From Alphaproteobacteria bacterium (GTDB lineage: Bacteria > Pseudomonadota > Alphaproteobacteria > Rs-D84 > CACZYB01), in NCBI GenBank assembly GCA_009785175.1, contig WQWV01000002.1, forward strand, positions 22,749 to 86,748: a stretch of 64,000 nucleotides of DNA, written 5' to 3'. The notes beneath the pieces were generated by a model. It ran no database searches and had not been told where the DNA came from. It was given only the letters and a program-made list of their open reading frames with translations. The position numbers and the translations under genes are program-made. Below are positions 3,404 to 61,772 of the stretch, piece by piece. Numbering within the stretch: position 1 is the first letter of the stretch; each line of letters begins with the position of its first letter.

Positions 3404-3590
3404 CAAATCCCCTCCGGTGGACAGCTCGAGGCAACGAGAGCGCCGGTTCCGTTGTAAAGATTTCAAGCTACGCGTTCACGCGCGCACGCACAGCGTGGGG
3501 GCGGCGTGGTGCGCGCAGCTCTTCGAGCTGGAGAACACAATGTATAAAAAGATTTGTGCGTAGGCGGGATCGCCAAATCGTTGGCGTTTG
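3404..3590. repeat. composite intergenic mosaic repeat (R2 core GGACAGCTCGAGGCAACGAGAGCG + R3 hairpin with loop CAGCGTGGGGGCGGCG + 57-bp unit + GCCAA hairpin); second copy at 37503-37790
   Basis: 57-mer gcgcgcagctcttcgagctggagaacacaatgtataaaaagatttgtgcgtaggcgg is identical at 3511-3567 and 37700-37756; R2 core shared at 3417-3442, 37515-37540, 26268-26290. Confidence 0.85.
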
Positions 3591-4369: not shown

Positions 4370-4414
4370 GGAGATATTATAATATAAGGATTTGGGAATG
4401 CAAGGAGAGAGCAA

Positions 4415-4500
4415 GCCATGAACGCCGAGCTGGCGGCGACGCACTTGTGCGCGCATGCCTGCGTGGGGGCGGCGGTCATGCGCGAAGCGAGCAAGCTCGC
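4415..4500. repeat. R3 structured repeat copy (5' arm AACGCCGAGCTGGCGG + hairpin CGCGCATG/CATGCGCG with loop CCTGCGTGGGGGCGGCGGT)
   Basis: conserved loop shared with copies at 3480, 9086(rc), 32623, 46736, 61501; stem sequence differs but remains complementary. Confidence 0.8.
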
Positions 4501-4567
4501 TGGAAAGCTTATATATACTTCACTGGATACTGCGATCAAGTCGCAGTATGACTGGAAGGGTATGAAA

Positions 4568-8589: not shown

Positions 8590-9051
8590 TTAACTATGCG
8601 CCCTTGTAATCGCGATCGCAAGCGCGTCGGCTGAGTGCTCGGAATCGGTTGCGGGTTTGCCAAGCAGCACGCCGACCATCATTTGAATTTGTTCCTTGGT
8701 CGCATGGCCCACACCGGTGATAGATTTTTTCACGAGATTAGGCGAAAATTCCGCGACAGGAATTCCAAACAACGCAGGCACAACAAAAGCCACTCCGCGA
8801 GCCGCGCCAAGTTTCAAAGTCGATTGCGGATTCATGTTCACGAACACGTCTTCTATCGCGGCGGCGGAGGGAGCGAACTTTTCCACAACCTCGCGCAGGC
8901 CGTCGTGTATCAATTTAAGGCGTTCGGACATGGGCGCCTTCTCGGGAACCTTGATCGTCCCGTTTGCGATGTGGACAAGGCTGTTGCCGCGACGCTCTAT
9001 GACTCCCCAGCCGGTGAAGCGAAGGCCGGGATCTATGCCGAGTATTATCAT
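8590..9051 (-). CDS. ruvC: crossover junction endodeoxyribonuclease RuvC
   Basis: 153 aa MIILGIDPGLRFTGWGVIE... with conserved D7, E, D, D catalytic pattern of RuvC. Confidence 0.9.
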   Translation of the reverse strand: MIILGIDPGLRFTGWGVIERRGNSLVHIANGTIKVPEKAPMSERLKLIHDGLREVVEKFAPSAAAIEDVFVNMNPQSTLKLGAARGVAFVVPALFGIPVAEFSPNLVKKSITGVGHATKEQIQMMVGVLLGKPATDSEHSADALAIAITRAHS

Positions 9052-9059
9052 AATATATC

Positions 9060-9150
9060 CTCCGATAAAGCTCCGTTAGGAGCTTGCGCGCACCACGCCG
9101 CCCCCACGCTGTGCGTGCGCGCCCTTCGGGCTCGCCGCCCTGCTCGGCGT
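9060..9150. repeat. R3 structured repeat copy, reverse orientation
   Basis: rc reads ...acgccgagcagggcggcgagcccgaagggcgcgcacgcacagcgtgggggcggcgtggtgcgcgca... Confidence 0.8.
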
Positions 9151-9166
9151 GGTTTGCCCTTTATCA

Positions 9167-10489
9167 TCATGGCGCCAATCTATTCGGGCCGCGGAATAGG
9201 AACTGTGCATCGCGGATCGAATCCAGGTTCAGGAGCTGCTTGGCTATCCTTTGGCCGCCCATGCCCCAACCGCCGTGCGGAGGCATGCCGAAACGGAAGA
9301 AGTTGGCGAACCACTGAAGCCCTTCGAGCTTCAATTTCTTCTCGGCGATCTGGGCCACAAGCTTCTCGTAATTCTCTTCGCGCTGCGCCGTGGTCGCTAT
9401 TTCCACACCCTTATAAAGCAAGTCGGCCGAGATCGAAATCGGCGATACGCCGTCGTCGCTTGAAACTCCCTTCTTGTGATAGAAAGGCCGCGCGCTCCAC
9501 GGGAATTCGGTTATGAACACAAAGTCGGAGCCAAGCTCGGCCGATACGTATTCGCCAATAGCCTTTTCCTCGGCGGTGGTCATATCGCCATCGGCAACAT
9601 CGTGGCCGCGCGATTTTAGGATTTCGCGAGCCTTGTGCATGGTCAGGCGCACCATAGGTTTTTTAAGGCCGATGTCCTTTATGCCCAGGTGCTTTTCGAT
9701 TTCCGCGCCACAGGATTTATCCACCTCGGCAAGCACCGCGGCAAGAGATCCCTCGAGCATATCCATAACGTCGCTGAAAGAATCGATATATCCCATCTCG
9801 GCGTCGTGGCCGATGAACTCGGTCGCGTGGCGAGTGGTGAACGAGTTGTCGGCGCGGAAAACCGAACCGATTTCGAATACCTGCTCGAGCCCGGAGGCGA
9901 TGCCCATCTGCTTAAAGAACTGGGGCGATTGGGCAAGGTATGCCGTCTGGCCGAAATAGTCGAGCGAGAAAAGCTCGGCGTTAGATTCCGACGGAGATGC
10001 CATGAATTTGGGCGTGTGGATTCCTATGAAGCCTTTGGAAATCAGAAATTCGGAATAGCCGCGGTCGATGGCGGAGAGCGCCTTCATTATCGTGGCATCG
10101 CGTTCGCGGCGCAACGTCAAGAAGCGCCAGTCCATGCGCTTTTCGGCGCTGACCTCGTCATCGCCTTTTTCTATTATCGGAATCGGGAGAAGCGGGTCGG
10201 CCGCGGACATGACGTCCAAGCTTTCGATTTGAATCTCGAGCCCTTCCTTGGTGCTTTTGGTTTCGACTACGGCGCCGGTGATTTTGATTACCGATTCCGT
10301 GGCAAGCTCCTTTACGGTTTCGAATGCCGCGTTGTCCTTGCCGATAACGCATTGCACGGTGCCGGTGATGTCGCGCACGATTATGAACGCGACCGAGGAC
10401 TGTTTACGCAAAGTTTGCGCGTGGCCGGCGATGAGGACTTTCTTGCCGATATGGGCGGAAAGTTCGGATAGATGTATTCTGTTTTGCAT
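9167..10489 (-). CDS. class II aminoacyl-tRNA synthetase, archaeal-type aspartate--tRNA ligase / asparagine--tRNA ligase (cannot distinguish)
   Basis: 440 aa; N-terminal OB anticodon-binding domain, class II motifs (…FRADNSFTTRHATEF…, C-terminal GGWGMGGQR motif 3). Confidence 0.8.
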   Translation of the reverse strand: MQNRIHLSELSAHIGKKVLIAGHAQTLRKQSSVAFIIVRDITGTVQCVIGKDNAAFETVKELATESVIKITGAVVETKSTKEGLEIQIESLDVMSAADPLLPIPIIEKGDDEVSAEKRMDWRFLTLRRERDATIMKALSAIDRGYSEFLISKGFIGIHTPKFMASPSESNAELFSLDYFGQTAYLAQSPQFFKQMGIASGLEQVFEIGSVFRADNSFTTRHATEFIGHDAEMGYIDSFSDVMDMLEGSLAAVLAEVDKSCGAEIEKHLGIKDIGLKKPMVRLTMHKAREILKSRGHDVADGDMTTAEEKAIGEYVSAELGSDFVFITEFPWSARPFYHKKGVSSDDGVSPISISADLLYKGVEIATTAQREENYEKLVAQIAEKKLKLEGLQWFANFFRFGMPPHGGWGMGGQRIAKQLLNLDSIRDAQFLFRGPNRLAP

Positions 10490-16893: not shown

Positions 16894-16970
16894 CGCGGGA
16901 TAGAGCAGCCTGGTAGCTCGCAAGGCTCATAACCTTGAGGTCATTGGTTCAAATCCAATTCCCGCAACCA
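16894..16970 (+). tRNA. tRNA-Met (anticodon CAT), initiator-like (C1:A72 mismatch, sequence close to fMet tRNA)
   Basis: cloverleaf: acceptor CGCGGGA/TCCCGCA with C1-A72, D arm GAGC-AGCCTGGTA-GCTC, anticodon loop CTCATAA, T arm, CCA encoded. Confidence 0.85.
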
Positions 16971-16985
16971 ATTCAAATAAAAAAT

Positions 16986-17006
16986 GCCCCCTAGTGGGGC
17001 GTTTTC
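16986..17006 (+). terminator. rho-independent terminator hairpin GCCCC-ctagt-GGGGC + T run after tRNA-Met
   Basis: perfect 5-bp GC stem followed by GTTTTCTT. Confidence 0.55.
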
Positions 17007-17130
17007 TTATTTGAAGTGATTATGGAACGGTTTTAACCAATGGAAAAATTGGTTCACCCGCGGGCAATAGGCGGAATAACGCCGGTTTGCGAAGCAAAAT
17101 TGCCAAGGGCCGTCGAGCGCAGCGAAGACG

Positions 17131-17150
17131 AAATCCAATTCCCGCAACCA
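17131..17150 (+). repeat. exact 20-nt direct repeat of tRNA-Met 3' end (AAATCCAATTCCCGCAACCA), 180 bp downstream of the gene
   Basis: identical to 16951-16970. Confidence 0.9.
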
Positions 17151-17185
17151 AAATAAATGAAACCGTCCCTTGGGGCGGTTTTTGC
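17150..17185 (+). repeat. direct repeat DR-left CAAAATAAatgaAACCGTCCcTTgGGGCGGTTTTT (hairpin + T run); partner at 17844-17877
   Basis: about 34 nt, 28 identical to 17844-17877; the pair flanks a single GC-poor reverse-strand ORF. Confidence 0.75.
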
Positions 17186-31336: not shown

Positions 31337-32561
31337 AAGGATTGTCATAGCGCGCGCGGTCGCAAGCGAGGCCTGGATCTCGATCAAGGCAAACAAGCTG
31401 CGCTCGTTCCTAACTACCCTTGGTATTATCATAGGCGTGTGCGCGGTCGTCATCATGGTCGCGGCCGGACAGACCGTCCAGAATATGATCAACCAGCAGC
31501 TTAGCGGTATCGGCGCAAACTTGCTGATCATCCGTCCAGAATTCACGACGCAGGGCGGACTGCGCGGCGGAACGCAATCTATAATCCGCACGAACGACGC
31601 CGACGCCATACGAAACGTCCGCAACATAATCGCCGTATCGCCTATGGTCATGACTACGCGTCAAATAGCATACAAAAGCCAGAACTTCGCAACCCAGCTT
31701 ATCGCAAGCACGACGGATGTCGCCAAAACCGGAAACTATGAAATCGAGTCCGGGCGGTTCTTTGACGAGCGCGACATGCGAGGCGCTGTGCCGGTGGTCG
31801 TAATCGGCTCGACAATTCAACAAGAATTGTTCCACGGTGCAGATCCTGTGGGCGAGGTTATCCGAATCGGAAACGTGCCGTTCACTGTCAAAGGCCTTTT
31901 GAAAACCAAAGGGCAAGGTATCGGCGGGCAGGATCAGGACGCGGTCGTCCTTATGCCCATCACCACTTTCCGTCGACGCATATTCGGCACGCGCATTCCA
32001 AACCGCGTCCAGATGATAATGGCGCAGGTATCCGACGAACGCTTTATCGAAGAGGCTAAATTGCAAATCGAAGTCGTCTTGCGCGAAACTCGCCGGTTGA
32101 AACCGGACGCGGAAAACGACTTTATCATCGATAATATGACCGAGATGTTGAACACTATTCGAAGCGTCGGATTATATCTTTCGGTGCTGCTTGCCTCGAT
32201 TGCGGGAATATCGCTTGTCGTCGGCTCGATCGGAATCATGAATATGATGTTGGTGTCGGTTTCCGAGCGGACGCGGGAGATTGGAATCCGCAAAGCCATC
32301 GGCGCGAAGAATTCCTCGATTTTAATGCAATTTTTGCTCGAGTCGATTTTGATTTCGTTTATCGGGTCGATGGTGGGTATGGTGCTTGGCATAGGGCTTG
32401 GTCAGATCGCGGGCGCGGTGATGGGCTATGCCGTGCCCATATCATATATGACAGTGCTACTTGCCGTCGCTGTGGCGATTGTGGTGGGCGTCGCGGCCGG
32501 TATCGTGCCGGCGATGAAGGCGACGCGGCTTGACCCGATCGAGGCGTTGAGGTATCAGTAA
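31329..32561 (+). CDS. ABC transporter permease, MacB/FtsX-type (split MacB)
   Basis: MacB_PCD periplasmic domain between TM1 and TM2, C-terminal FtsX 3-TM bundle. Confidence 0.8.
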   Translation: MDRRIVIARAVASEAWISIKANKLRSFLTTLGIIIGVCAVVIMVAAGQTVQNMINQQLSGIGANLLIIRPEFTTQGGLRGGTQSIIRTNDADAIRNVRNIIAVSPMVMTTRQIAYKSQNFATQLIASTTDVAKTGNYEIESGRFFDERDMRGAVPVVVIGSTIQQELFHGADPVGEVIRIGNVPFTVKGLLKTKGQGIGGQDQDAVVLMPITTFRRRIFGTRIPNRVQMIMAQVSDERFIEEAKLQIEVVLRETRRLKPDAENDFIIDNMTEMLNTIRSVGLYLSVLLASIAGISLVVGSIGIMNMMLVSVSERTREIGIRKAIGAKNSSILMQFLLESILISFIGSMVGMVLGIGLGQIAGAVMGYAVPISYMTVLLAVAVAIVVGVAAGIVPAMKATRLDPIEALRYQ

Positions 32562-32572
32562 ATAAACTTTCT

Positions 32573-32690
32573 AGCGAAGCCACAGCCGCCAGCAGGGCGA
32601 AAGAGCAGTATTGCGCGCACCCCTGCGTGGGGTGGCGGTTGTGCGCGCAGCGAGGCGAGCTCGCTGGAAAGTCAATGTATAAACGTGAAA
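32573..32690. repeat. R3 structured repeat copy (hairpin GCGCGCAC/GTGCGCGC, loop CCCTGCGTGGGGTGGCGGTT) + conserved 3' arm GAGCTCGCTGGAAAG
   Basis: 3' arm also shared with copy at 4486-4520. Confidence 0.8.
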
Positions 32691-32872
32691 ATGCCCCGGC
32701 CAAGGAGGAGAGAGAGAATAAGGAGGGAATGGCCGGGGCTACTATGTCATACCGAAATGAGGGGTCGTCCCGGTTAAACACAGACCTGCTGAAAAGCAGA
32801 TAGCACTATTTTAGACAGGATTTACATTATTTGTCAACCGATTTCTTAAAATATTATTTTGTCAAGGTATAA

Positions 32873-37502: not shown

Positions 37503-37790
37503 AAATCTATACCTATGGACAGCTCGAGGCAACGAGAGCGAGGTTCCATGGGAATAGATTTGTAGCTACGCGCAAAGCGCTCCCTCCCCCCCCATTTTTT
37601 TGATAACACAGGTTTAATCTGTCTCAAACAAAACATCGACGTAGCGATACTCGCATCACGTCCTAGCGCCACTACGCCGGCAGGGCGGAAGCGCCAATGG
37701 CGCGCAGCTCTTCGAGCTGGAGAACACAATGTATAAAAAGATTTGTGCGTAGGCGGAACGCCAAGAGCAGTTGGCCTTTGTGAGGCGGCG
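37503..37790. repeat. composite mosaic repeat, second copy (R2 core, C8/T7 tract, R3 fragment, identical 57-mer at 37700-37756, GCCAA hairpin)
   Basis: see 3404-3590. Confidence 0.85.
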
Positions 37791-44632: not shown

Positions 44633-45801
44633 AACCAAGTGTGCGCCGCAACATAGCAATCTTCAAGGCGATGAATGCCTTCATGTTCTTCTGGCCGCTT
44701 TCGGCTGTGGCTATAATTTATTTCGAGTCTATCACAGGAAGCTGGGCAACCGCCGCACTTATCTTCTCGCTTTCCAACATAACGCAGGCCGCATTCGCGA
44801 TTCCGGCCGGGATAATATCCGATGTATGGTCCAGAAAAAAAGTGGTCCTTACCGCAAACACTTTCAAAATCATGACGGGCCTTACCTTCTCGTTCGCGGG
44901 ATACATAGAAAACGCCACGCTATTGTTCATCGGCGCGGTGCTTTGGGGCATAAACACGTCCTTGAACCAAAGCACGGAAGAGGCGTTCATACATGAAACG
45001 ATGGCCGACCTTAAGAAGAAAAACAAATACGACATAGTCTATTCCTCAATCAAAATATGGCGCTATGTGGGCTCGACCGTTTCGACATTGACCGCGGCGG
45101 CGGTAATATATTTCTGGAGCCTCAACACGCTTGCCTGGATTTCAGTAATCCCAGGCGTGTTCCAATTCGCGGTCAGCTGCTTCCTTGTGGAACCGAAAAG
45201 CTATCGGCCGCGCAAGAACGCGTCGCTTGGACACTTCATGGCGGCGGTCGGGAATTTCATGAAGAACAGGCGGGCGCGCAAAATCGCGCTTGCAGGCACT
45301 ATGGACACAAGCTGGGGCGAAACGCAATACCGCCTCAACAGCGTATACTACGCCCTTTTCGTGCCGTTGTGGGCGGTGGATTTCATAGTGTTTATCGCCA
45401 GGGCTTTCGCGGGGATAAGTTTTTACATAGCGATACACCTTAGGAAAATCGGATTGTTCCAGATGGCGCTTGTGTCGAATTTGTGGAAGTTCATTATGGT
45501 GGGCCTGGGACTTTTGCTTAACAACATAGCATCGCCGTTCATAATGGCGGCTTCGAGCCTTGGCACAGGACCGCAAACCTCCGCGGTATCGGCGCTTATG
45601 CAGAAGGAATTCTCGGATTCGGAGCGGGCGGCAATGCGAGCGGTCGTGAACATGTTCGGAAGCTTGATGCTGGCGACATCGTTCTGGATTTTCGGATTGG
45701 TCGCGGATTTGTATTCGGCGCATATCGCGCTTCTAGGACTGTTGGCATATAAGGGTTTAATCACCGTCTATTACTGGCGGTTGATGAGGAGTTATAAGTA
45801 A
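44629..45801 (+). CDS. MFS-type membrane transporter (12 TM)
   Basis: 390 aa polytopic; MFS-like motif region …GIISDVWSRKKV…. Confidence 0.55.
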   Translation: MKPSVRRNIAIFKAMNAFMFFWPLSAVAIIYFESITGSWATAALIFSLSNITQAAFAIPAGIISDVWSRKKVVLTANTFKIMTGLTFSFAGYIENATLLFIGAVLWGINTSLNQSTEEAFIHETMADLKKKNKYDIVYSSIKIWRYVGSTVSTLTAAAVIYFWSLNTLAWISVIPGVFQFAVSCFLVEPKSYRPRKNASLGHFMAAVGNFMKNRRARKIALAGTMDTSWGETQYRLNSVYYALFVPLWAVDFIVFIARAFAGISFYIAIHLRKIGLFQMALVSNLWKFIMVGLGLLLNNIASPFIMAASSLGTGPQTSAVSALMQKEFSDSERAAMRAVVNMFGSLMLATSFWIFGLVADLYSAHIALLGLLAYKGLITVYYWRLMRSYK

Positions 45802-46700
45802 TGATTGCGTTAGAGGCAAGGAGGAAATGGCTTGACTTCTTGCGCTCGGAGAGGCGGTTTTCGGCGCACACGTTGGTCGCATACGAAAACGATATCGGAG
45901 ATTTTTTGAAGTATGTCGGCGGGCGCGATTTGTCCGACATCTCCTTGCGCGAATTTCGCGGATTCGTCGCCACCATGGCGCGAGAGGAATTGCGCGCGAC
46001 CTCTATTGCCCGGAAAGTTTCGGCCCTTAAAAGCTTCTATCGATTCCTCGAGCAGAACGGGATAGCGAACAATCCATACGTCGCGATTTTGCGCCTGCCG
46101 AAGCAGCCGAAAAAACTTTCGAAATCGCTTGGCCACGAGGACGTGGGCGAGATTTTGGACGCCTTCAACGCGATCGCTAAACTACCATGGATAGCACGGA
46201 GAAATCGCGCATTATTTACTTTGATATATGGCGCTGGCTTGCGAATTTCCGAGGCGCTTGGCGTCAACATCGAGGCGGTGGGAGAGGACGAAATACGCAT
46301 TCGCGGCAAGGGATCGAAGGAGCGGATCGTGCCGCTTCTATCAGTTATAAAAACCGAGATCGAATCGTATATCAATGCTATGCCTTTTTCGCGCACGACC
46401 GGGCCGTTGTTCATCGGGGAAAAAGGAGCGAGGCTGTCGGCGCGCGTGGCGGAACGCGACTTTGCGGCGGCTAGAAATTATTTACAACTATCGGCAAGCG
46501 CTACGCCCCATTCACTTCGTCATTCGTTCGCGACGCACCTGCTTGCCGCGGGTGCCGATTTACGGACTATACAAGAGCTGCTTGGGCATTCGTCGTTGTC
46601 TACAACTCAACTTTATACCAAAACGGATATGGGCACGATCGCGAAGCAATATGCGAAATCGCATCCGCGGGCTTCGTTTAACAAAAAGTCCTTCGCGTAG
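45801..46700 (+). CDS. xerC: tyrosine recombinase XerC/XerD family
   Basis: core-binding N domain; catalytic R…HxxR…Y (HSLRHSFATHLL, LGHSSLSTTQLYT). Confidence 0.8.
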   Translation: MIALEARRKWLDFLRSERRFSAHTLVAYENDIGDFLKYVGGRDLSDISLREFRGFVATMAREELRATSIARKVSALKSFYRFLEQNGIANNPYVAILRLPKQPKKLSKSLGHEDVGEILDAFNAIAKLPWIARRNRALFTLIYGAGLRISEALGVNIEAVGEDEIRIRGKGSKERIVPLLSVIKTEIESYINAMPFSRTTGPLFIGEKGARLSARVAERDFAAARNYLQLSASATPHSLRHSFATHLLAAGADLRTIQELLGHSSLSTTQLYTKTDMGTIAKQYAKSHPRASFNKKSFA

Positions 46701-46800
46701 CAAGCGACGCCGAGCAGGGCGGCAAGCGGTGTATACCGCGCGCGTCCAGCGTGGGGGCGGCGGAGCGCGCGGAGCCCTTCGGGCTGGAGGGTCAAATTAT
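46697..46800. repeat. R3 structured repeat copy (stem CCGCGCGC/GCGCGCGG, loop GTCCAGCGTGGGGGCGGCGGA)
   Basis: 5' arm GACGCCGAGCAGGGCGG conserved. Confidence 0.8.
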
Positions 46801-46857
46801 GCAAGGTAGGAATTCCCTCCCCTTTATTCGGTGCCGGTCGTGCGCTACAATCCCCAC

Positions 46858-51941: not shown

Positions 51942-54055
51942 TGAAAAAAATGATCGGCCTTGTTTCGCACCTCGTCGGACTTATGAAGTTTGCGCTGTTC
52001 GTGCTTGTCGCCGCAATGGTCGCGATCTTTATCGCAATGTTCAACACCGACCCCGGCGAATACAGGCTTGAGATCGAGCGCAACATCACCGCCATCGTCG
52101 GGCGCGAGGCAAGAATCTCGGGAAGCCTTCGCTGGAAAATGTCGCCGTTTACGCCCGGTATCGAAATCTCGGGCCTTAAGATATTCGACCAGAACGGACG
52201 GGATAAGTTCATAACCGCCGACGATGTCGCAGCGAACCTTTCCATACGCGACATTGTCCGCGGACGGCTTGTCATAGACTCGGTCGATATAAACGCGCCG
52301 ATGATAAGCCTTAACATATCCGAAGGAGGCAAGCGCAACTGGGACTTCACAAGTCTTAACGGAGGACGCAGAGGCGAGGATTCCGACAGCCTTAACATAA
52401 ACATCAACAGAATAAACATAACGGATGCGAAAATAGTATACCGCGATATGCGCGACAACACCGAGGTGATAGCCAGGATACAGCGCGCCACGCTTTCCAT
52501 GGCCTCTGCGATGGAAATAAACCTTAACATTGCCGCAATGATCGAGGGGCATGCCGTATCCGGCACATTCCGCACAACACGCCTTGCCGGAGAGGAATTC
52601 GTATCCATACTTGGCAGCATCAACGCTTTTAACGGGCGCGCGCGCGTCATGGGCAAGATACGCAACGTCGACGGGCGGCAGGTGGCGGCGGCTAATGTCA
52701 GGATATCGCTTGAAAATCTAATGAACCTTCCGTGGGTGCCGAATAATCCCGAAAGGTTCGAGGCGCCTATCGCATCCGAATTCGACATAATAATCGACGG
52801 GAGGCGAATAAAGCTTGAAAACCTATCCGCGAACTTTAAGAACCTCTCGATCGCCGGCAAGGCGGATATAGACATTTCCGGCGCGCGGCCGCGAATAATC
52901 GCCGAGATTGCCGCGCCAATGCTTGACATACCAACCATATTCTATCCCGCATGGGAAGAGGCATACCGCGCGCGCGTAGCAGATCCCCGTAAACGAAGGC
53001 TAAGCACTGGCTGGGCGGCGAATGCTATGGCTTTTGCGGGCACGCCATTATATCCACAACTGTTGGATTTGGCGGACATGGAGCTTAGTATCAAAATCAC
53101 GCGCCTTATGGCTATGCCCGACAAGAGCGTCGATAACATAGAACTACGCGCACTTGTCGCAGGCGGACAGGCAATAATCGAGCCCCTTCGTTTCGAATAC
53201 AAGGGTGGGCGGACACATGGCCGAGCGTTCGCACAAAACATCGACGGCGAGCTTGACGCTCTATTGCTTTTCCACTCGAACACCAATATCGGAAAAATAG
53301 TCGATTCCACCGGCTATCCCGGCCTTGTCATAGGAGGGGACGCAAGAGTCGATGCTGCTGCGATGGCGCGCGGCCCGGATTTGACCACATTCGTATCCTC
53401 GATGAACGGCGTGTTGCGCGCGCATACTACAAGCAAGGCCAAGACCGTCAGGATCGAAAGCATATTCGCGGCCCAGGACATCGCAACCTCGATCGCGCGG
53501 ACATTCTTGCCTGGCGGTAGGCGGACAAGCGACATATCCTGCCTTGCAATAAACATTCCAATACGGGGCGGCGTGGCATTCTCGGAACGCGGGATAGCAA
53601 TCGAAACTCAGGCCGCGAACATCGTCATCGATGGCAAGGTCGACCTTGGGCGCGAGAGAATCGACGCCTCGATCATCACGCTTGACAAGGGACCGAACCT
53701 GTCCCTTTCCATATCCGATTTGGTGCGCATACACGGTTCGATCGCAAACCCGGAAATCGGGATCAGCAGAAGCGGGCTTACCGCAACAGCACTTGATATC
53801 GGCGTCGCGACCGCTGTGGTAGGCACGATCGGAATCTTGACGGGGGGCATAGGGTTGGCTGCTGCTGGCGGACTTGGCGTATTGGGCAACGCGTGGCTTA
53901 ACGCGCTTGAGGCCGACAGGACGCCGTGCCTGACCGCACTTGGAAATACGGCCGTGATGTTGGACGCGGCGGGCGAAACAGTGTCCGTCAGGGGCGAGGT
54001 GGAGCGGTTGTTGAACCTGCGCGAGAAAGAAGTCCGGGCGGCTTGGAAGCGTTAA
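51938..54055 (+). CDS. AsmA-family outer-membrane biogenesis protein
   Basis: N-terminal TM anchor; long beta-rich periplasmic region; AsmA N- and C-terminal domain patterns. Confidence 0.65.
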   Translation: MMKKMIGLVSHLVGLMKFALFVLVAAMVAIFIAMFNTDPGEYRLEIERNITAIVGREARISGSLRWKMSPFTPGIEISGLKIFDQNGRDKFITADDVAANLSIRDIVRGRLVIDSVDINAPMISLNISEGGKRNWDFTSLNGGRRGEDSDSLNININRINITDAKIVYRDMRDNTEVIARIQRATLSMASAMEINLNIAAMIEGHAVSGTFRTTRLAGEEFVSILGSINAFNGRARVMGKIRNVDGRQVAAANVRISLENLMNLPWVPNNPERFEAPIASEFDIIIDGRRIKLENLSANFKNLSIAGKADIDISGARPRIIAEIAAPMLDIPTIFYPAWEEAYRARVADPRKRRLSTGWAANAMAFAGTPLYPQLLDLADMELSIKITRLMAMPDKSVDNIELRALVAGGQAIIEPLRFEYKGGRTHGRAFAQNIDGELDALLLFHSNTNIGKIVDSTGYPGLVIGGDARVDAAAMARGPDLTTFVSSMNGVLRAHTTSKAKTVRIESIFAAQDIATSIARTFLPGGRRTSDISCLAINIPIRGGVAFSERGIAIETQAANIVIDGKVDLGRERIDASIITLDKGPNLSLSISDLVRIHGSIANPEIGISRSGLTATALDIGVATAVVGTIGILTGGIGLAAAGGLGVLGNAWLNALEADRTPCLTALGNTAVMLDAAGETVSVRGEVERLLNLREKEVRAAWKR

Positions 54056-54104
54056 ACAAAAAGTCCTTCACTTCGTTCAGTGTACTTTTTGTTAGGGAAT
54101 TCTT

Positions 54105-54141
54105 GTCTTCACTACGCTTATAAATGCCGCTTCGTGAAGAC
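54105..54141 (+). repeat. hairpin A: 8-bp stem GTCTTCAC/GTGAAGAC, 21-nt loop TACGCTTATAAATGCCGCTTC, followed by T-rich run
   Basis: partner hairpin B at 54595-54631 has same loop, different but complementary stem. Confidence 0.8.
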
Positions 54142-54206
54142 GGGTTTTGTTTTCTTATATAACCCCTTGATTTTTCATAGCGATAAGTATATATTTAGTC
54201 CACTTT

Positions 54207-54289
54207 GGGGGTGTGGCGGAATTGGTAGACGCGCTAGACTCAAAATCTGGTTGGAAACAGTGTGGGTTCGATTCCCACCGCCCCTACCA
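54207..54289 (+). tRNA. tRNA-Leu (anticodon CAA), type II with long variable arm
   Basis: GGGGGTG acceptor, TGGCGGAATTGGTAGAC D arm, anticodon loop CTCAAAA, long variable arm, GGGTTCGATTCCC T arm, CCA encoded. Confidence 0.85.
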
Positions 54290-54431
54290 AAAAGTTTTAT
54301 GCCCTTGCGGCATAGAAATTTTTTGGTGAGAGATGATGGAAAGAAGCCATAAAAGTGGGTTCGGAACAAGGCGAGAGGTGAGCGAAGCGAGCGAGCCGCA
54401 GTGAACGCGGAGGGCACAGCCCGAAGCGAAC

Positions 54432-54450
54432 ATTCCCACCGCCCCTACCA
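54432..54450 (+). repeat. exact 19-nt direct repeat of tRNA-Leu 3' end (ATTCCCACCGCCCCTACCA), 161 bp downstream
   Basis: identical to 54271-54289. Confidence 0.9.
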
Positions 54451-54594
54451 CCCTTCGCCTCTGCGAGGCTTCGGGTGGCAAGCCGCCCGAACAAGTAAGA
54501 GGGCGAAGGTGTGCCCTCCGAAGCTTTAGCGAAGGACGGGCTGAAGTGATTACAAATCTCAGGCAACCTCTGAGATTTAATTTGGGAAAGTCGT

Positions 54595-54631
54595 GTCCTA
54601 ACTACGTTTATAAATGCCGCTATGTTAGGAC
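54595..54631 (+). repeat. hairpin B: stem GTCCTAAC/GTTAGGAC, loop TACGTTTATAAATGCCGCTAT
   Basis: see hairpin A. Confidence 0.8.
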
Positions 54632-54696
54632 GAAATTTTTGAAAGAGGGGGAAGAAGAATTAACAACGCCGCGCAAGTGTCGGCTGATATAGGGCT

Positions 54697-54909
54697 ATGA
54701 TGAAAAAATACGGCACATTGGATATAATCGACTATATGATATGGTCCAACGCAACGCGATACGGAGCAGATGAAAACGCGATCAAACAGCTGATGAACCT
54801 TATCTTTTCGATGTTCAACTCACCGCTATATATTATGGAGCTTTGCAGTCGGCAGTCCCGAGCGGCATACATTGCCGAAATGGGCGATCCAAACAAATGG
54901 GGAAGATAG
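54697..54909 (+). CDS. hypothetical small protein (70 aa), GC-poor
   Basis: ORF after tRNA-Leu locus. Confidence 0.35.
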   Translation: MMKKYGTLDIIDYMIWSNATRYGADENAIKQLMNLIFSMFNSPLYIMELCSRQSRAAYIAEMGDPNKWGR

Positions 54910-54919
54910 GGTATAAAAC

Positions 54920-55456
54920 ATGATTTTCGTGCATGAATCCAATAAAAGAAACAGGCGCAATCTTGGCCGATCGATCGCAAAGATAAGAGCCGAGCTTGAA
55001 AAGGTAGCACCGAACAGCCGCGAATTCGAAATACTGTGCGGGCGACTTTTGGCCCTGTTCGTAATAAAGCACGACATCGCCGGGCCCAAAAAGCCCTTTG
55101 TCGCGGACAATGCCAAAATCGCCATTTGGGAAATAGAGAACAAGGAAAGAGGGCTTAGGGAATTCATGCTTGCGGCAATGGAATTCTATACCGACGACGA
55201 ATATTTCAAACGCGCAGCAACCGACAAGGGCACAAGAATCAACTCTTTGTCGACGCCATTTTACCAAGAACTTAGAAACTGGGACGTGGTCATAATGGAC
55301 GAGGCATACATCGCCGCGCTTAAGGCGGACCAGGACGACGAGGTGGAAAGAATAAACAAGAGTGGGAAAGAGCAAAAGCTGATAGAACACAATAAGGCAT
55401 ATGAGAAAATCAGAAAAGAGCTTTTGGAAATAAACAAGGTTCGAGCGGGGAAATAA
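54920..55456 (+). CDS. hypothetical protein (178 aa), GC-poor
   Basis: ORF; no motif. Confidence 0.45.
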   Translation: MIFVHESNKRNRRNLGRSIAKIRAELEKVAPNSREFEILCGRLLALFVIKHDIAGPKKPFVADNAKIAIWEIENKERGLREFMLAAMEFYTDDEYFKRAATDKGTRINSLSTPFYQELRNWDVVIMDEAYIAALKADQDDEVERINKSGKEQKLIEHNKAYEKIRKELLEINKVRAGK

Positions 55457-55462
55457 GCGTAG

Positions 55463-56974
55463 ATGTTCTCGAAAATCCAGACTTGCGCGTTTATGGGAAT
55501 CAAGACCTCGCTTGTGTCCGTCGAGGTGATGATTTCCGCGGGACTTCCGAAATTCGCGATCGTGGGTTTGCCGGACAAGGCGATATCCGAAGCGCGCGAG
55601 CGGATCACTTCCGCATTCTTATCCATGGGTTTGGCGTTGCCGCCGAAGAAGATTATCGTGAACTTGGCGCCGGCCGACGTGCTTAAAGAGGGCTCGCATT
55701 TCGACCTTCCCATCGCATTAGCAATTTTGGGTGCGCTTGATATCGTGCCGTCAGAGGAGGTCGCCAATTATTTGGTTATGGGCGAGTTGTCTTTGTCCGG
55801 CCACATAAAACCCGTGAACGGAATCCTGCCTGCGGCGATTGGTGCGAAGGATGCGGGACTTGGCATAATCTGTCCTGCGGCTCAGGCCGGCGAGGCGCTT
55901 TGGAGCGGGAACGAAAACTCGCTTGGCGCGAACACTTTGTCCGAAATCGTAAATCATTTCAAAGGTTCGCAGTTGATCGCACGCGCCGTCATGCCATCGG
56001 CGTTCGACGTTAAACATTCGGTCGACATGCGCGATATCAAGGGGCAGAACCAGGCTCGTCGCGCGCTTGAAATCGCTGCGGTCGGTTGCCACCACATGCT
56101 TATGATCGGGCCGCCGGGCGTGGGAAAATCCATGCTGGCTTCGCGTTTGCCTACTATTTTACCGCCGATGAATGCCAAGGAGATGCTCGAACTTTCCGTT
56201 ATAAATTCCGTGGCGGGCATGAAGATGGAAGAAGGTCTTTGCATATCGCGGCCGTTCCGAGCGCCGCATCACACCGCGTCGCAGGCTTCGCTTACCGGCG
56301 GAGGAATGCATGCCAAACCCGGCGAGGCGTCGTTGGCGCATAATGGCGTTTTATTCCTGGACGAACTTCCCGAATTCTATACGGCGTCGTTGGATTCTTT
56401 GCGCCAGCCGTTGGAGAACGGAGAGATTACAATCGCCCGGGCGAACGCCCACATAACCTATCCCGCGAAGTTCCAGCTTGTCGCCGCGATGAACCCGTGC
56501 AAGTGCGGGCATTTCGGGAATCCGAACAAGGCCTGTGCGTCCGCGCCGCTTTGCGCGCTTAAATATCAGAACCGAATTTCCGGCCCGATGTATGATCGAA
56601 TCGATTTGGTGGTAGAGGTCGAGAATCTTAATCCGTGGGAACTTAACACCATCGAGCCGAGCGAAGACTCCGCGACGATACGCGCGCGGGTTATACGTGC
56701 ACGCGAGTTCGAGATGGAGCGTTTGCGGCGCCACTTTGGCACCGACGGATTGTTGAACGCCGGACTTAGCGGCAAGCAAATCGAGGAGAGCGCGAACATG
56801 AGCCCGGACGCGCACTCTATGCTTATCAAAGCCGCGGAGAAATTCGGGTTGTCCGCACGCGGCTATTACAAAATTATGCGAATCGCGCGCACCGTCGCCG
56901 ATATGAGGTTCAGCGATTCCCTCGACACGCCGGACGTGAGCGAGGCATTAATGTTCAGACGAAAGGTAGGTTGA
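55463..56974 (+). CDS. comM: YifB/ComM-family Mg-chelatase-like AAA+ ATPase
   Basis: N-terminal Lon-protease-like domain, Walker A GPPGVGKS, ChlI domain. Confidence 0.85.
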   Translation: MFSKIQTCAFMGIKTSLVSVEVMISAGLPKFAIVGLPDKAISEARERITSAFLSMGLALPPKKIIVNLAPADVLKEGSHFDLPIALAILGALDIVPSEEVANYLVMGELSLSGHIKPVNGILPAAIGAKDAGLGIICPAAQAGEALWSGNENSLGANTLSEIVNHFKGSQLIARAVMPSAFDVKHSVDMRDIKGQNQARRALEIAAVGCHHMLMIGPPGVGKSMLASRLPTILPPMNAKEMLELSVINSVAGMKMEEGLCISRPFRAPHHTASQASLTGGGMHAKPGEASLAHNGVLFLDELPEFYTASLDSLRQPLENGEITIARANAHITYPAKFQLVAAMNPCKCGHFGNPNKACASAPLCALKYQNRISGPMYDRIDLVVEVENLNPWELNTIEPSEDSATIRARVIRAREFEMERLRRHFGTDGLLNAGLSGKQIEESANMSPDAHSMLIKAAEKFGLSARGYYKIMRIARTVADMRFSDSLDTPDVSEALMFRRKVG

Positions 56975-57240
56975 AAATGGGTATACCAGAATTTATACGA
57001 CGCCAGGACCCTGATTTCTTCGATAAAAGGGATAGGGATTTGAAACGTAGAAATGACAGAGGGAGAGGTGGCGGAAGGTCATATTCACGCAGCTATTCAT
57101 CGCGCTCTGATTATGTATCGCCAAACAGTATGGAAGGAAGATGGAGTGCAAAACCAACGGAGCTTTCTCAACTTGAAAAAGACGAAGCCGCGCGGCGCGT
57201 GAAACAAACACTTGCAAAAATGAAAGGAAACAGGAAATGA
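56971..57240 (+). CDS. hypothetical low-complexity basic protein (R/S/G-rich), GC-poor
   Basis: ORF overlapping comM stop. Confidence 0.35.
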   Translation: MKMGIPEFIRRQDPDFFDKRDRDLKRRNDRGRGGGRSYSRSYSSRSDYVSPNSMEGRWSAKPTELSQLEKDEAARRVKQTLAKMKGNRK

Positions 57241-57812
57241 GGCACTATAGAGAACTCGCGATGGTCGACGCATACGTCCGGCAGGCAAACAGCACGATAA
57301 AGCTTGTCGAAGACGACAACATAATCACAATTAGGAAGCGCTTGGATTACAATTGGCTTGACGCGGACTATAAATTCACCAACAAGGTATACAACGTGCT
57401 TGTTCCCGAATTGCGTTCGCCGATAAAGCTTAGCCGGACGAATGTTTATAAATCCGACGGGGGGGGGTGGGAATATTACGGCTGCTATTCGTCCATATAT
57501 GTAGGATCGCTTACCCCATACAGCTATTCATCGTCAGTAAACTGCGACGCGGACGAAATGTTCAACCTTATTGAAAAGCAAATCGAAAACGGAAAGAAAT
57601 GTATCCTTGCAATCAGATATGAAAATAGAAACCAAAAACCGGGCGACGCCTCGATGGAACATAGAAAAAGACAGGCGCAAGCCCACGCCGACTGCGATGC
57701 GGAAGCATTCTTTAAGATTAGAAAAGCCGCAACGAAAGTCGCAACTGTGCAAGACATAGCGACGGCGAAAAAGACCCTTAAGGCCATAATGAACGACAAA
57801 CGGAAAAGGTAA
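57237..57812 (+). CDS. hypothetical protein (191 aa) with in-frame G9 tract (57459-57467, codons GGG GGG GGG)
   Basis: ORF; GC-poor. Confidence 0.45.
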   Translation: MRHYRELAMVDAYVRQANSTIKLVEDDNIITIRKRLDYNWLDADYKFTNKVYNVLVPELRSPIKLSRTNVYKSDGGGWEYYGCYSSIYVGSLTPYSYSSSVNCDADEMFNLIEKQIENGKKCILAIRYENRNQKPGDASMEHRKRQAQAHADCDAEAFFKIRKAATKVATVQDIATAKKTLKAIMNDKRKR

Positions 57813-58027
57813 AATAGAAAGTAAGCAAAAACTGGTCAAAGAAGAAAGCATACGTCTTTAACAAAAGCAAGGAATTGATACCCTCGCCCGATGCTAAAAT
57901 AGAACGACCGTGCAAAATCCGCGTTGGCCGCTATAAAGCACCTTATACTATAATTATCTGGATTGCATCTGCTACGCGTTCCCTCTGTTCCCGGCTTGTG
58001 GGGGGGGGGTAATGACGAGAGAGAGCT

Positions 58028-60770: not shown

Positions 60771-61456
60771 GCCTACGTATCGCCACTTCGCGGTTTATGC
60801 TTACTATCACAAGCCTTGTTTGCATCGGGCTGGCTGCGCTTTTGTTGGTCGGCTCGATCGGCTTCTATAACGCTATCGGGCAAGAGGCGGTGCGGGGAAT
60901 CGTAATTCAGGACGCGAAATCCGAAATCAAAGGCATGGTGTTCACACCGCTTGTAATGGCTGCCCTTGGCCGCGAAAAGCGCGAGGAGATCCTTCGTAGG
61001 CTTATCGTGCAATACATCGTGCAGCGCTATACGTTGAGCGGCAGCGAGGCCGAGATGAGGCGCGTGTTCGGAACCGGATCCATATTCGACATGACGGGCG
61101 CGGCGCTTAAGCTTGCCTCGTATAGTCCAGAGCAAGGGGATTACGGCCAGCCGTTCGCCTCGATTGTCGCCGAGGCCGAAGAACGGGGGCGCCTTTTGAC
61201 CGAGGGAACAACGCGCACCGTCGAAATCATCGGCCAACCGCAGCTTTATAAAGATATGTGGATCACAAATGTCGATTTTATCTATCGAACGCCCGGGATT
61301 TGGCGGCGCGAGGACGCTACGCGCGAATCGTATGAGATCCAGATGGTGCTTGAGCCGTTCGGGGCGTTGCGGATGCCCTCGACCGCCGCACGCCTTGGGG
61401 TGGCAAGCGCCATGTTCGATTGGTATATAAAGTCGATTAATAGGGTGAAGAAGTAA
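60758..61456 (+). CDS. hypothetical bitopic membrane protein (N-terminal TM + periplasmic domain)
   Basis: overlaps previous stop. Confidence 0.45.
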   Translation: MGKMSLRIATSRFMLTITSLVCIGLAALLLVGSIGFYNAIGQEAVRGIVIQDAKSEIKGMVFTPLVMAALGREKREEILRRLIVQYIVQRYTLSGSEAEMRRVFGTGSIFDMTGAALKLASYSPEQGDYGQPFASIVAEAEERGRLLTEGTTRTVEIIGQPQLYKDMWITNVDFIYRTPGIWRREDATRESYEIQMVLEPFGALRMPSTAARLGVASAMFDWYIKSINRVKK

Positions 61457-61466
61457 TCCAGAGCAA

Positions 61467-61560
61467 GCCAGAACGCCGAGCTGGGCGGCCGCGCAGTATT
61501 GCGCGCTGACCTGCGTGGGGGCGGCGTTCAGCGCGCAGCTCGATAAATCGAGCTAAAAAA
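61467..61560. repeat. R3 structured repeat copy (stem GCGCGCTGAC/GTTCAGCGCGC, loop CTGCGTGGGGGCGGC)
   Basis: 5' arm GAACGCCGAGCTGGGCGG. Confidence 0.8.
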
Positions 61561-61772
61561 CTATCTATAGGAGAGAATCGCGCCAATGGGAAACTTTTGC
61601 CAAAAAATACCCTTTTTAGACGCAAAAACGACGTAAAAACCTCTAAAAATTTGTCAGCTAAAATATTACACTTTTATTTGATTTTCTAAGTGATTGTTTT
61701 TCCCAAATCAAAATCAGGTCAAGAAAAAAATTAGTAAAAAATAACAAAATATTGATTTACAGGAGGGGCAAA

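Follow-up and report, generated by a model that had tools for sequence, protein, structure and literature searches.

A tRNA gene that stands between two near-copies of a hairpin, and is followed by a copy of its own 3' end, raises the question of whether an integrative element once entered the genome at that point and whether any of it is left. This arrangement surrounds tRNA-Leu(CAA) in a 64-kb stretch of DNA, hereafter called the window (contig WQWV01000002.1 of assembly GCA_009785175.1, positions 22,749 to 86,748; coordinates below count from its first letter), which belongs to the metagenome-assembled genome of an uncultured, deep-branching alphaproteobacterium. A preliminary description had combined the two hairpins (A and B) and the tRNA copy into one scar of an integrative element. 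We found that it merged two unrelated features, and there is no present-day mobile island at the locus. The sequence of the locus is the same in an ENA assembly and a Logan assembly, except for one indel near 58000, and an assembler artefact at tRNA-Leu is therefore unlikely. For searches within the same genome the window was widened by 10 kb on the right and 7.4 kb on the left (~81 kb in total).

The explanation that we favor, with a probability of about 0.45, is that two independent things lie side by side here, copies of a palindromic repeat and a displaced-fragment scar at the tRNA gene. A and B would be two copies of a ~50-nt, lineage-specific palindromic intergenic repeat, a small hairpin element resembling repetitive extragenic palindromic (REP) sequences or miniature inverted-repeat transposable elements (MITEs). 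Each unit may have inserted into the T-tract after an A/T-flanked hairpin (T1 past asmA, T3 past the tRNA-Leu trailer) and duplicated 5–7 bp on insertion. Each copy would then add a second stem-loop and T-run on the + strand and act at most as an auxiliary terminator or insulator, and either selection on the fold or correction templated by the palindrome could keep its stem complementarity. The tRNA 3' copy would be a displaced fragment, left as a scar when site-specific recombination took place in the tRNA gene's T-loop region. This process may have acted repeatedly in the genome, or its layout may have been kept, as tRNA-Met shares the same order of parts (a-b-X-a-Y-b, Table 1). If this explanation is true, the locus mainly teaches how tRNA genes accumulate old recombination scars and small repeats around them, and a tRNA fragment together with GC-poor orphan genes should not be taken too readily for an island.

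Table 1. Coordinates of features at the tRNA-Leu and tRNA-Met loci and of the dispersed intergenic repeat.
Feature	Position	Strand	Remarks
T1	54056-54092	+	A-run/hairpin/T-run stem-loop, terminator-like; directly after asmA stop (54055); RNAfold, native sequence
TTTTGTT, 7-nt direct repeat flanking element A	54087-54093 and 54145-54151	+	105 of 5000 composition-matched shuffles as good (p ~0.02)
Element A, ~51 nt	54094-54144	+	stem grows to 11 bp (54102-54144) via G-U pairs; loop TACGCTTATAAATGCCGCTTC; 79.1 bits
Hairpin A	54105-54141	+	perfect 8-bp stem, GTCTTCAC/GTGAAGAC
Predicted tRNA-Leu promoter	54167-54195	+	sigma-70-like, TTGATT-17-TATATT; consensus match only
tRNA-Leu(CAA)	54207-54289	+	intact, encoded CCA; ARAGORN and Rfam, 58 bits
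a (tRNA-Leu positions 49-57)	54262-54270	+	GTGGGTTCG; within tRNA gene
b (tRNA-Leu positions 58-76)	54271-54289	+	within tRNA gene
Trailer X, 65 nt	54290-54354	+	carries T2 and diverged trailer box
Terminator T2	54295-54317	+	in trailer X; T6 in addition; z=-6.0
Diverged trailer box	54329-54341	+	AGAGATGATGGAA; in trailer X, after T2
a2	54355-54363	+	exact copy of T-stem 5' strand and TTCG (positions 49-57); k-mer comparison
Y, 68 nt	54364-54431	+	GC-rich insert; parts tRNA fragment between positions 57 and 58
b2	54432-54450	+	exact 19-nt copy of tRNA-Leu positions 58-76, ATTCCCACCGCCCCTACCA; repeat finder
Trailer Z	54451-54553	+	long imperfect hairpin ~54451-54511
Box TGAAGTGATTA	54542-54552	+	in trailer Z
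T3	54554-54578	+	hairpin AAATCTCAGG/TCTGAGATTT; after tRNA-Leu trailer
AATTT, 5-nt direct repeat flanking element B	54579-54583 and 54634-54638	+	203 of 5000 shuffles as good (p ~0.04)
Element B, ~50 nt	54584-54633	+	stem grows to 9 bp via U-G; loop TACGTTTATAAATGCCGCTAT; 78.4 bits
Hairpin B	54595-54631	+	8-bp stem, GTCCTAAC/GTTAGGAC
ORF70	54697-54909	+	orphan gene; same direction as comM
ORF178	54920-55456	+	orphan gene; ends 6 nt before comM
comM	starts at 55463	+	
tRNA-Met locus	16894-17182	+	order of parts as at tRNA-Leu; only other tRNA in window
tRNA-Met	16894-16970	+	initiator type, C1:A72
tRNA-Met first terminator	16981-17005	+	
Box TGAAGTGATTA	17012-17022	+	downstream of tRNA-Met
tRNA-Met a2	17048-17055	+	ATTGGTTC, T-stem 5' strand and TTC
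tRNA-Met Y, 75 nt	17056-17130	+	GC-rich
tRNA-Met b2	17131-17150	+	exact 20-nt copy of tRNA 3' end
tRNA-Met second terminator	17159-17182	+	
~150-nt repeat, full copies	3415-3572 (+), 4384-4543 (+), 9031-9186 (-), 32547-32703 (+), 46670-46828 (+), 61433-61590 (+)		
~150-nt repeat, partial copy	37700-37757		6-7 copies overall

Hairpin Elements A and B

Both hairpins lie, with their stems, where the preliminary description had placed them, and its claim that the stems are fully compensated was confirmed: in the two-sequence alignment each proposed pair, 11 of 11, is formed by A as well as by B, and in 2 of 9 stem pairs both sides are changed. If each 8-nt arm takes two changes, they would be complementary at mirror positions with a chance of ~0.004. 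Both stems are free of mismatches and bulges, and RNAfold predicts an outer GGGAA/UUUUC helix in A as well as in B. The loop had been called identical over 21 nt, which it is not. The two loops share a 14-nt core and differ at 3 of 21 positions, no different from the 8 of 30 in the remaining repeat (Fisher p=0.49). The homologous unit is larger than the hairpin, as the repeat finder aligned ~51 nt (54092-54142 with 54582-54632, 78% identical); the homology is limited to these ~51 nt and the flanking DNA is unalignable. Since the loop is no better kept than the rest, what calls for an explanation is a short repeat whose divergence is uniform and whose stem is kept.

The position of the two units suggests that they were added to existing terminators. 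A and B each begin 12–16 nt past an ordinary A/T-flanked stem-loop (T1 and T3, respectively), within its T-tract. With element A removed in silico, the T1 hairpin is directly followed by UUUUCUUAU (z=-3.8), and with element B removed T3 is followed by AAUUUUUG; that deletion of the units restores a hairpin with a U-tract was counted for the insertion. The consensus terminator scan did not call T1. The other terminators of this genome (T2 after tRNA-Leu and the two at tRNA-Met) have loops of 4–7 nt vs 21 nt in A and B, which argues that A and B were added and are not the primary terminators. The scan called neither A nor B as a Rho-independent terminator, for which loops of 3–8 nt are the norm. 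The 11-bp stem of copy A is directly followed by UUUUGUUUUCUU, and in copy B the U-tract is offset from the stem by 3 nt. Like every gene here, both copies are on the + strand, and each stands at a transcription-unit boundary. Further support comes from a second, dispersed hairpin family with covarying stems (see section “Neighboring Genes and Other Repeats”), since it indicates that such elements are a habit of this genome. With no more than two copies, in low-complexity flanks, we read A and B as a small palindromic element that may have inserted into terminator T-tracts.

The preliminary description had suggested a search for other copies of the loop motif. The window has exactly two matches to TACGYTTATAAATGCCGCT at up to 3 mismatches, vs 0.06 expected, and a third copy was not found at up to 5 mismatches in the ~81 kb of the genome. 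A covariance model (R1), built from copies A and B only, recovered these two alone in ~155 kb of DNA from the genome and relatives' loci, where the next best match scored 12.6 bits; the tRNA-Met locus does not contain the motif according to this model. Exact scans gave 9 matches in 185,579 species genomes and 16 in the JGI metagenomes, and we regard these as chance because none in either collection has complementary hairpin flanks.

At both copies exactly 65 nt separate the end of the 51-nt repeat from the feature that follows (54142 to the tRNA-Leu 5' end at 54207, and 54632 to the ATG of ORF70 at 54697). The two spacers are unrelated in sequence, and a promoter match is present only in the spacer after hairpin A. 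Two functions for the loop itself were tried and rejected. A promoter inside the loop has no usable -35 at 16–19 nt from TATAAA, and the best duplexes for pairing of the loop with a target RNA were no better than generic GC-rich matches.

The Split Copy of the tRNA-Leu 3' End

The tRNA-Leu(CAA) gene and the exact 19-nt copy of its 3' end are present as had been described; such a copy has a chance of ~5e-7 in 64 kb. The duplication had been recorded incompletely. Since the nine bases before the 19-mer in the tRNA, GTGGGTTCG, recur at 54355-54363, the full copy is a 28-nt T-arm-to-CCA fragment (positions 49–76) that is split by 68 nt. The chance of finding this 9-mer within 100 nt is ~4e-4. An intact tRNA gene is thus followed by its cognate fragment in two parts (54355-54363 and 54432-54450), both on the + strand. 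A displaced tRNA 3' fragment, downstream and on the same strand, is the classic trace of a tyrosine-integrase element according to the Islander principle (PMC4383910), and the fact that this fragment is exact and collinear with positions 49–76 was counted for its origin as a scar.

The interval between the repeats is 142 bp and holds no gene and no integrase, and no third copy of the tRNA-Leu end was found downstream at up to 3 mismatches. It had been noted that no integrase remains, which holds for the locus. The only recombinase in the window (45801-46700, 8 kb upstream and outside the interval) scores as a housekeeping XerC (TIGR02224, 289.6 bits). An origin of 54290-54594 from a phage or plasmid was rejected, as BLAST gave no match, and a scan of viral contigs for the 19-mer matched only in an unrelated phage tRNA array. 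This array, on IMG/VR contig IMGVR_UViG_3300025655_007265 (L039 2220-2317), contains a tRNA-like sequence that ARAGORN does not call and whose last 28 nt equal the last 28 nt of the tRNA-Leu in the window.

Insert Y folds no better than shuffles, and its membership of the dispersed GC-rich repeat family was rejected as nhmmer gave no match. A perfect 11-nt inverted repeat, CGGAGGGCACA (54408-54418, in Y) and TGTGCCCTCCG (54510-54520, in Z), encloses the 19-mer and a long hairpin of ~60 nt. The Rfam scan returned no family at the gathering threshold except the two tRNAs. In the acceptor stem of tRNA-Leu the first pair is a G1-U72 wobble, and there is also a U6-G67 pair.

A Parallel Locus at tRNA-Met

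At tRNA-Met the same parts follow each other in the same order (a-b-X-a-Y-b), with 65 nt (Leu) and 77 nt (Met) for X, 68 nt and 75 nt for Y, and a repeat interval of 160 bp at tRNA-Met. At both loci a2 and b2 match the tRNA with 100% identity, next to DNA that cannot be aligned, and the tRNA-Met repeat extends with less identity into the trailer (88% over 32 nt). The loci also have the exact 11-mer TGAAGTGATTA in common; its two occurrences, each downstream of a tRNA on its strand, are the only ones in the window. A downstream copy of the last 16 nt of the tRNA was found at 0 of 21 tRNAs in unrelated loci vs 2 of 2 here. The shared split layout indicates that the pattern is recurrent in this genome and not a one-off accident at tRNA-Leu. 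The a-Y-b part folds no better than shuffles on either strand, and the tRNA-Met locus has no Rfam match.

The oddest part of these results is that both tRNAs of the window carry a miniature, integrase-less duplicate of their 3' end which is split at the same T-loop position. If this split layout holds genome-wide, it points to an unrecognized way in which tRNA genes are targeted or protected.

Evidence Against the Favored Explanation and Alternatives

Several observations weigh against the explanation of the locus as a small repeat and a recombination scar side by side. Firstly, only two copies of the hairpin unit are known, 490 bp apart, and none was found in the further ~17 kb or in the relatives' loci, so a mobile repeat family is at most a candidate. 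The direct repeats that flank the copies are short and unequal (7 vs 5 nt) and lie within low-complexity, T-rich DNA. The stems without mismatch or bulge and the 21-nt loop are unlike those of classic REPs. No candidate for a transposase of the hairpin unit is known, be it a REP-associated tyrosine transposase (RAYT) or another, and no systematic RAYT search was made. Secondly, there is no integrase or cargo between the tRNA repeats, and Y lies exactly at 57/58 in both loci, which simple integration and decay does not predict. Comparison of X with X and of Y with Y between the loci gave no significant similarity, apart from the shared box. Lastly, the 100% identity of a2 and b2 beside unalignable DNA could mean selection or gene conversion and not a passive scar. 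With two loci, the candidates are a mini-element, integration followed by decay on repeated occasions, and a module that is maintained.

The hairpins might instead be plain intrinsic terminators in a back-up role, produced by local copying or conversion and with no mobility and no role for the loop, but this seems unlikely. Such terminators would fit the 11-bp stem of copy A with UUUUGUUUUCUU directly behind it, the place of both copies on the coding strand downstream of transcription units, the outer GGGAA/UUUUC helix predicted in both, and a divergence that is uniform along the repeat. However, a 21-nt loop is beyond normal terminator geometry and the scan called neither copy, the U-tract of copy B starts 3 nt past the stem, and upstream of each copy there is already a competent hairpin with its U-tract. 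Furthermore, no known mechanism moves just 51 nt to a site 490 bp away and leaves flanking direct repeats.

We consider it quite unlikely that the hairpins are a locus-specific cis-regulatory motif upstream of tRNA-Leu and of the ORF70-comM operon, with a loop that is recognized by a protein or RNA, either in RNA or in DNA. Both 51-nt repeats end exactly 65 nt before the next unit, the 14-nt loop core is the same and the stems are compensated, the motif occurs nowhere else in 81 kb, and a 21-nt loop is atypical among the terminators of this genome. Against this stand a loop that is not conserved beyond the remaining repeat, 65-nt spacers that are unrelated and show a promoter match only after hairpin A, the lack of a match to an Rfam family, and a tRNA-Met gene without such a motif. 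Moreover, the motif consists of only two sequences, without comparative support.

A bolder proposal, which we hold to be rather improbable, would take both features as new. The a-b-X-a-Y-b layout would be the footprint or resident form of an undescribed mini-element or process that acts at T-loop position 57/58, restores the tRNA, carries its own terminator and leaves a tRNA-end mimic that is kept identical, and terminator T-tracts would be the target of the ~50-nt hairpin, itself another new small element.

It is also improbable, and somewhat more so, that a-Y-b is a maintained module which accompanies tRNA genes (as a tRNA-end mimic RNA or as the site of an undescribed mini-element at 57/58) and not a decayed scar. 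In its favor, the order is the same and the sizes are similar at 2 of 2 tRNA genes (X 65/77 nt, Y 68/75 nt), a2 and b2 are 100% identical to the tRNA where the adjacent DNA is unalignable, and the trailers have a common box; the continuation of the tRNA-Met repeat into the trailer (32 nt, 88%) suggests an old duplication of which the tRNA-like parts were kept. However, a-Y-b folds no better than shuffles on both strands, it has no 5' acceptor strand and cannot form a minihelix, it has no Rfam match, and the sample is two loci. A permuted transfer-messenger RNA (tmRNA) or tRNA was rejected, as the weak permuted tmRNA match (18.8 bits vs a threshold of 47) is due to the T-arm of the tRNA itself and no tmRNA was called by ARAGORN.

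Finally, we regard it as very improbable that the hairpins are attL and attR of an integrative element at tRNA-Leu, with 54290-55460 and its open reading frames (ORFs) as the remains of an island: two directly repeated 51-nt sites do bracket tRNA-Leu, a tRNA 3' fragment is present, ORF70 and ORF178 are orphans with a GC content of 0.44-0.47 vs ~0.55 in their neighbors, and trailer Z after b2 has the box that follows b1 at tRNA-Met, so that a second element could start at b2, but hairpin A is upstream of the tRNA and outside any tRNA-anchored att interval, no third tRNA-end copy follows at up to 3 mismatches, the ORFs match no integrase, excisionase, phage or defense family, ORF178 ends 6 nt before comM, and equally GC-poor orphans are scattered through the window. 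A and B are also not attL/attR hybrids, because the arms within each copy are perfectly complementary, with differences compensated internally, whereas a crossover in the loop would pair arms from different parents. What stands of the proposed integration scar is that the tRNA-end copy is a displaced fragment of the recombination type; the hairpins are not its att sites, being self-complementary and both outside the tRNA-repeat interval. Nor does 54290-55460 find support as the remnant of an element, as the repeat interval covers only 142 bp without a gene, the ORFs lie beyond the fragment, and ORF178 abuts comM. ORF70 and ORF178 would at most be candidate cargo.

Comparison with Known Systems

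The scar that we propose at tRNA-Leu resembles known tRNA-integration scars in that an intact tRNA is followed by an exact T-arm-to-CCA copy on the same strand, with a boundary in the T-stem/T-loop region. Sites in the T-stem region form a major class and were recorded for 1836 islands (PMC4383910), partial tRNA genes of tyrosine-integrase origin are widespread (PMC9897764), and remnant partial tRNAs and decayed arrays are known from tycheposon islands (bioRxiv 10.1101/2020.12.28.424599). Here, however, the interval measures 142–160 bp and not kilobases, with neither an integrase nor cargo, and the fragment is split at 57/58 by 68–75 nt at both tRNAs. By the measure of Islander, the intervals contain no tyrosine integrase and no kilobase multigene island (142 bp at Leu, 160 bp at Met). 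An integrase origin of the scar is inferred. Cis-mobilizable elements (CIMEs), which are remnants of integrative elements flanked by att sites and without an integrase of their own, are known from work on the integrative and conjugative element (ICE) ICESt of Streptococcus thermophilus. The tRNA-Leu interval is like a CIME as a segment between two copies of an attachment sequence with no recombinase. It differs from CIMEs in that it is far smaller, one att copy is interrupted, and this genome has no known cognate ICE or integrase.

Hairpin elements A and B share with REPs and bacterial interspersed mosaic elements (BIMEs), RIME elements and MITEs that they are short hairpin units, intergenic only and beside terminators, with pairing kept between copies. 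The short flanking direct repeats resemble target-site duplications, and a second dispersed hairpin family is present in the same genome. Unlike REPs and BIMEs, which are many and dispersed, there are two copies in ~81 kb, with a perfect stem and a 21-nt loop, and unlike REPs they have no GTAG 5' of the stem on either strand. MITEs are defined by terminal inverted repeats and a target-site duplication of fixed length; here the stem arms could serve as inverted repeats, and the flanking repeats (7 and 5 nt, p 0.02 and 0.04) are unequal in length and lie in T-rich DNA.

Integron attC sites, and clusters of attC sites lacking integron integrases (CALINs), offer another likeness: there are two same-strand hairpins less than 4 kb apart with variable stems, and the ends of copy B (TCCTAAC...GTTAGGA) match RYYYAAC/GTTRRRY at 6 of 7 positions. 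In copy A (TCTTCAC...GTGAAGA), however, GTG takes the place of the GTT recombination triplet. The hairpins differ from attC sites in having no extrahelical bases, no L boxes and no bulges, and between them lies a tRNA with its own predicted promoter. An intI gene was not found, as the sole tyrosine recombinase of the window scores 121 bits vs a cut-off of 265 for integron integrases and vs 289.6 bits for XerC.

Neighboring Genes and Other Repeats

ORF70 and ORF178 have a GC content of 0.44-0.47, with 0.56-0.58 at third codon positions (GC3), vs ~0.55 GC in neighboring genes; other orphan genes, dispersed over the window, are just as poor in GC. Both ORFs are to the right of the tRNA fragment, outside the interval that the repeats bound. 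A word-indexed search of 5.8 billion clustered proteins and a full HMMER scan over 1.84 billion representatives both returned no homologue of ORF178, and the AlphaFold model of its product has a pLDDT (predicted local distance difference test) of 46.6. Neither ORF70 nor ORF178 matched Pfam, PHROGs, NCBIfam or PADLOC, and the orphan ORFs had no sequence match in the PDB.

Protein look-ups with AsmA, ComM and ORF178 returned the same strain only, and no close relative was present in the collections searched. The best non-self match of AsmA is 24% identical, and the locus of the nearest AsmA homologue contains no tRNA. Homologues of ComM, at 61–70% identity, are found in unrelated neighborhoods, with no synteny and no tRNA-Leu beside comM. 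A replication origin or terminus at the locus was ruled out, as the GC skew across the region has no inflection. Two further GC-poor orphan ORFs, of 89 and 191 aa (56971-57812), overlap the end of comM and each other by 4 nt. With orphan ORFs before and after it, comM is embedded in an orphan-gene run.

The dispersed intergenic repeat of ~150 nt (Table 1) resembles REP or RIME elements and has no Rfam match. In its GCGCGC-type stem the inner pairs covary, and the loop of 19–22 nt, GCGTGGGGGCGGCG, is conserved; next come another small hairpin, also covarying, and a TATA-like stretch rich in A/T. One copy of this GC-rich repeat has at its left edge, in the last codons of xerC (46675-46694), a 20-nt sequence, CGTT(A/T)AACAAAAAGTCCTTC, that recurs in near-identical form at 54050-54069 (BLAST E-value 0.008), where it covers the asmA stop and the start of T1.

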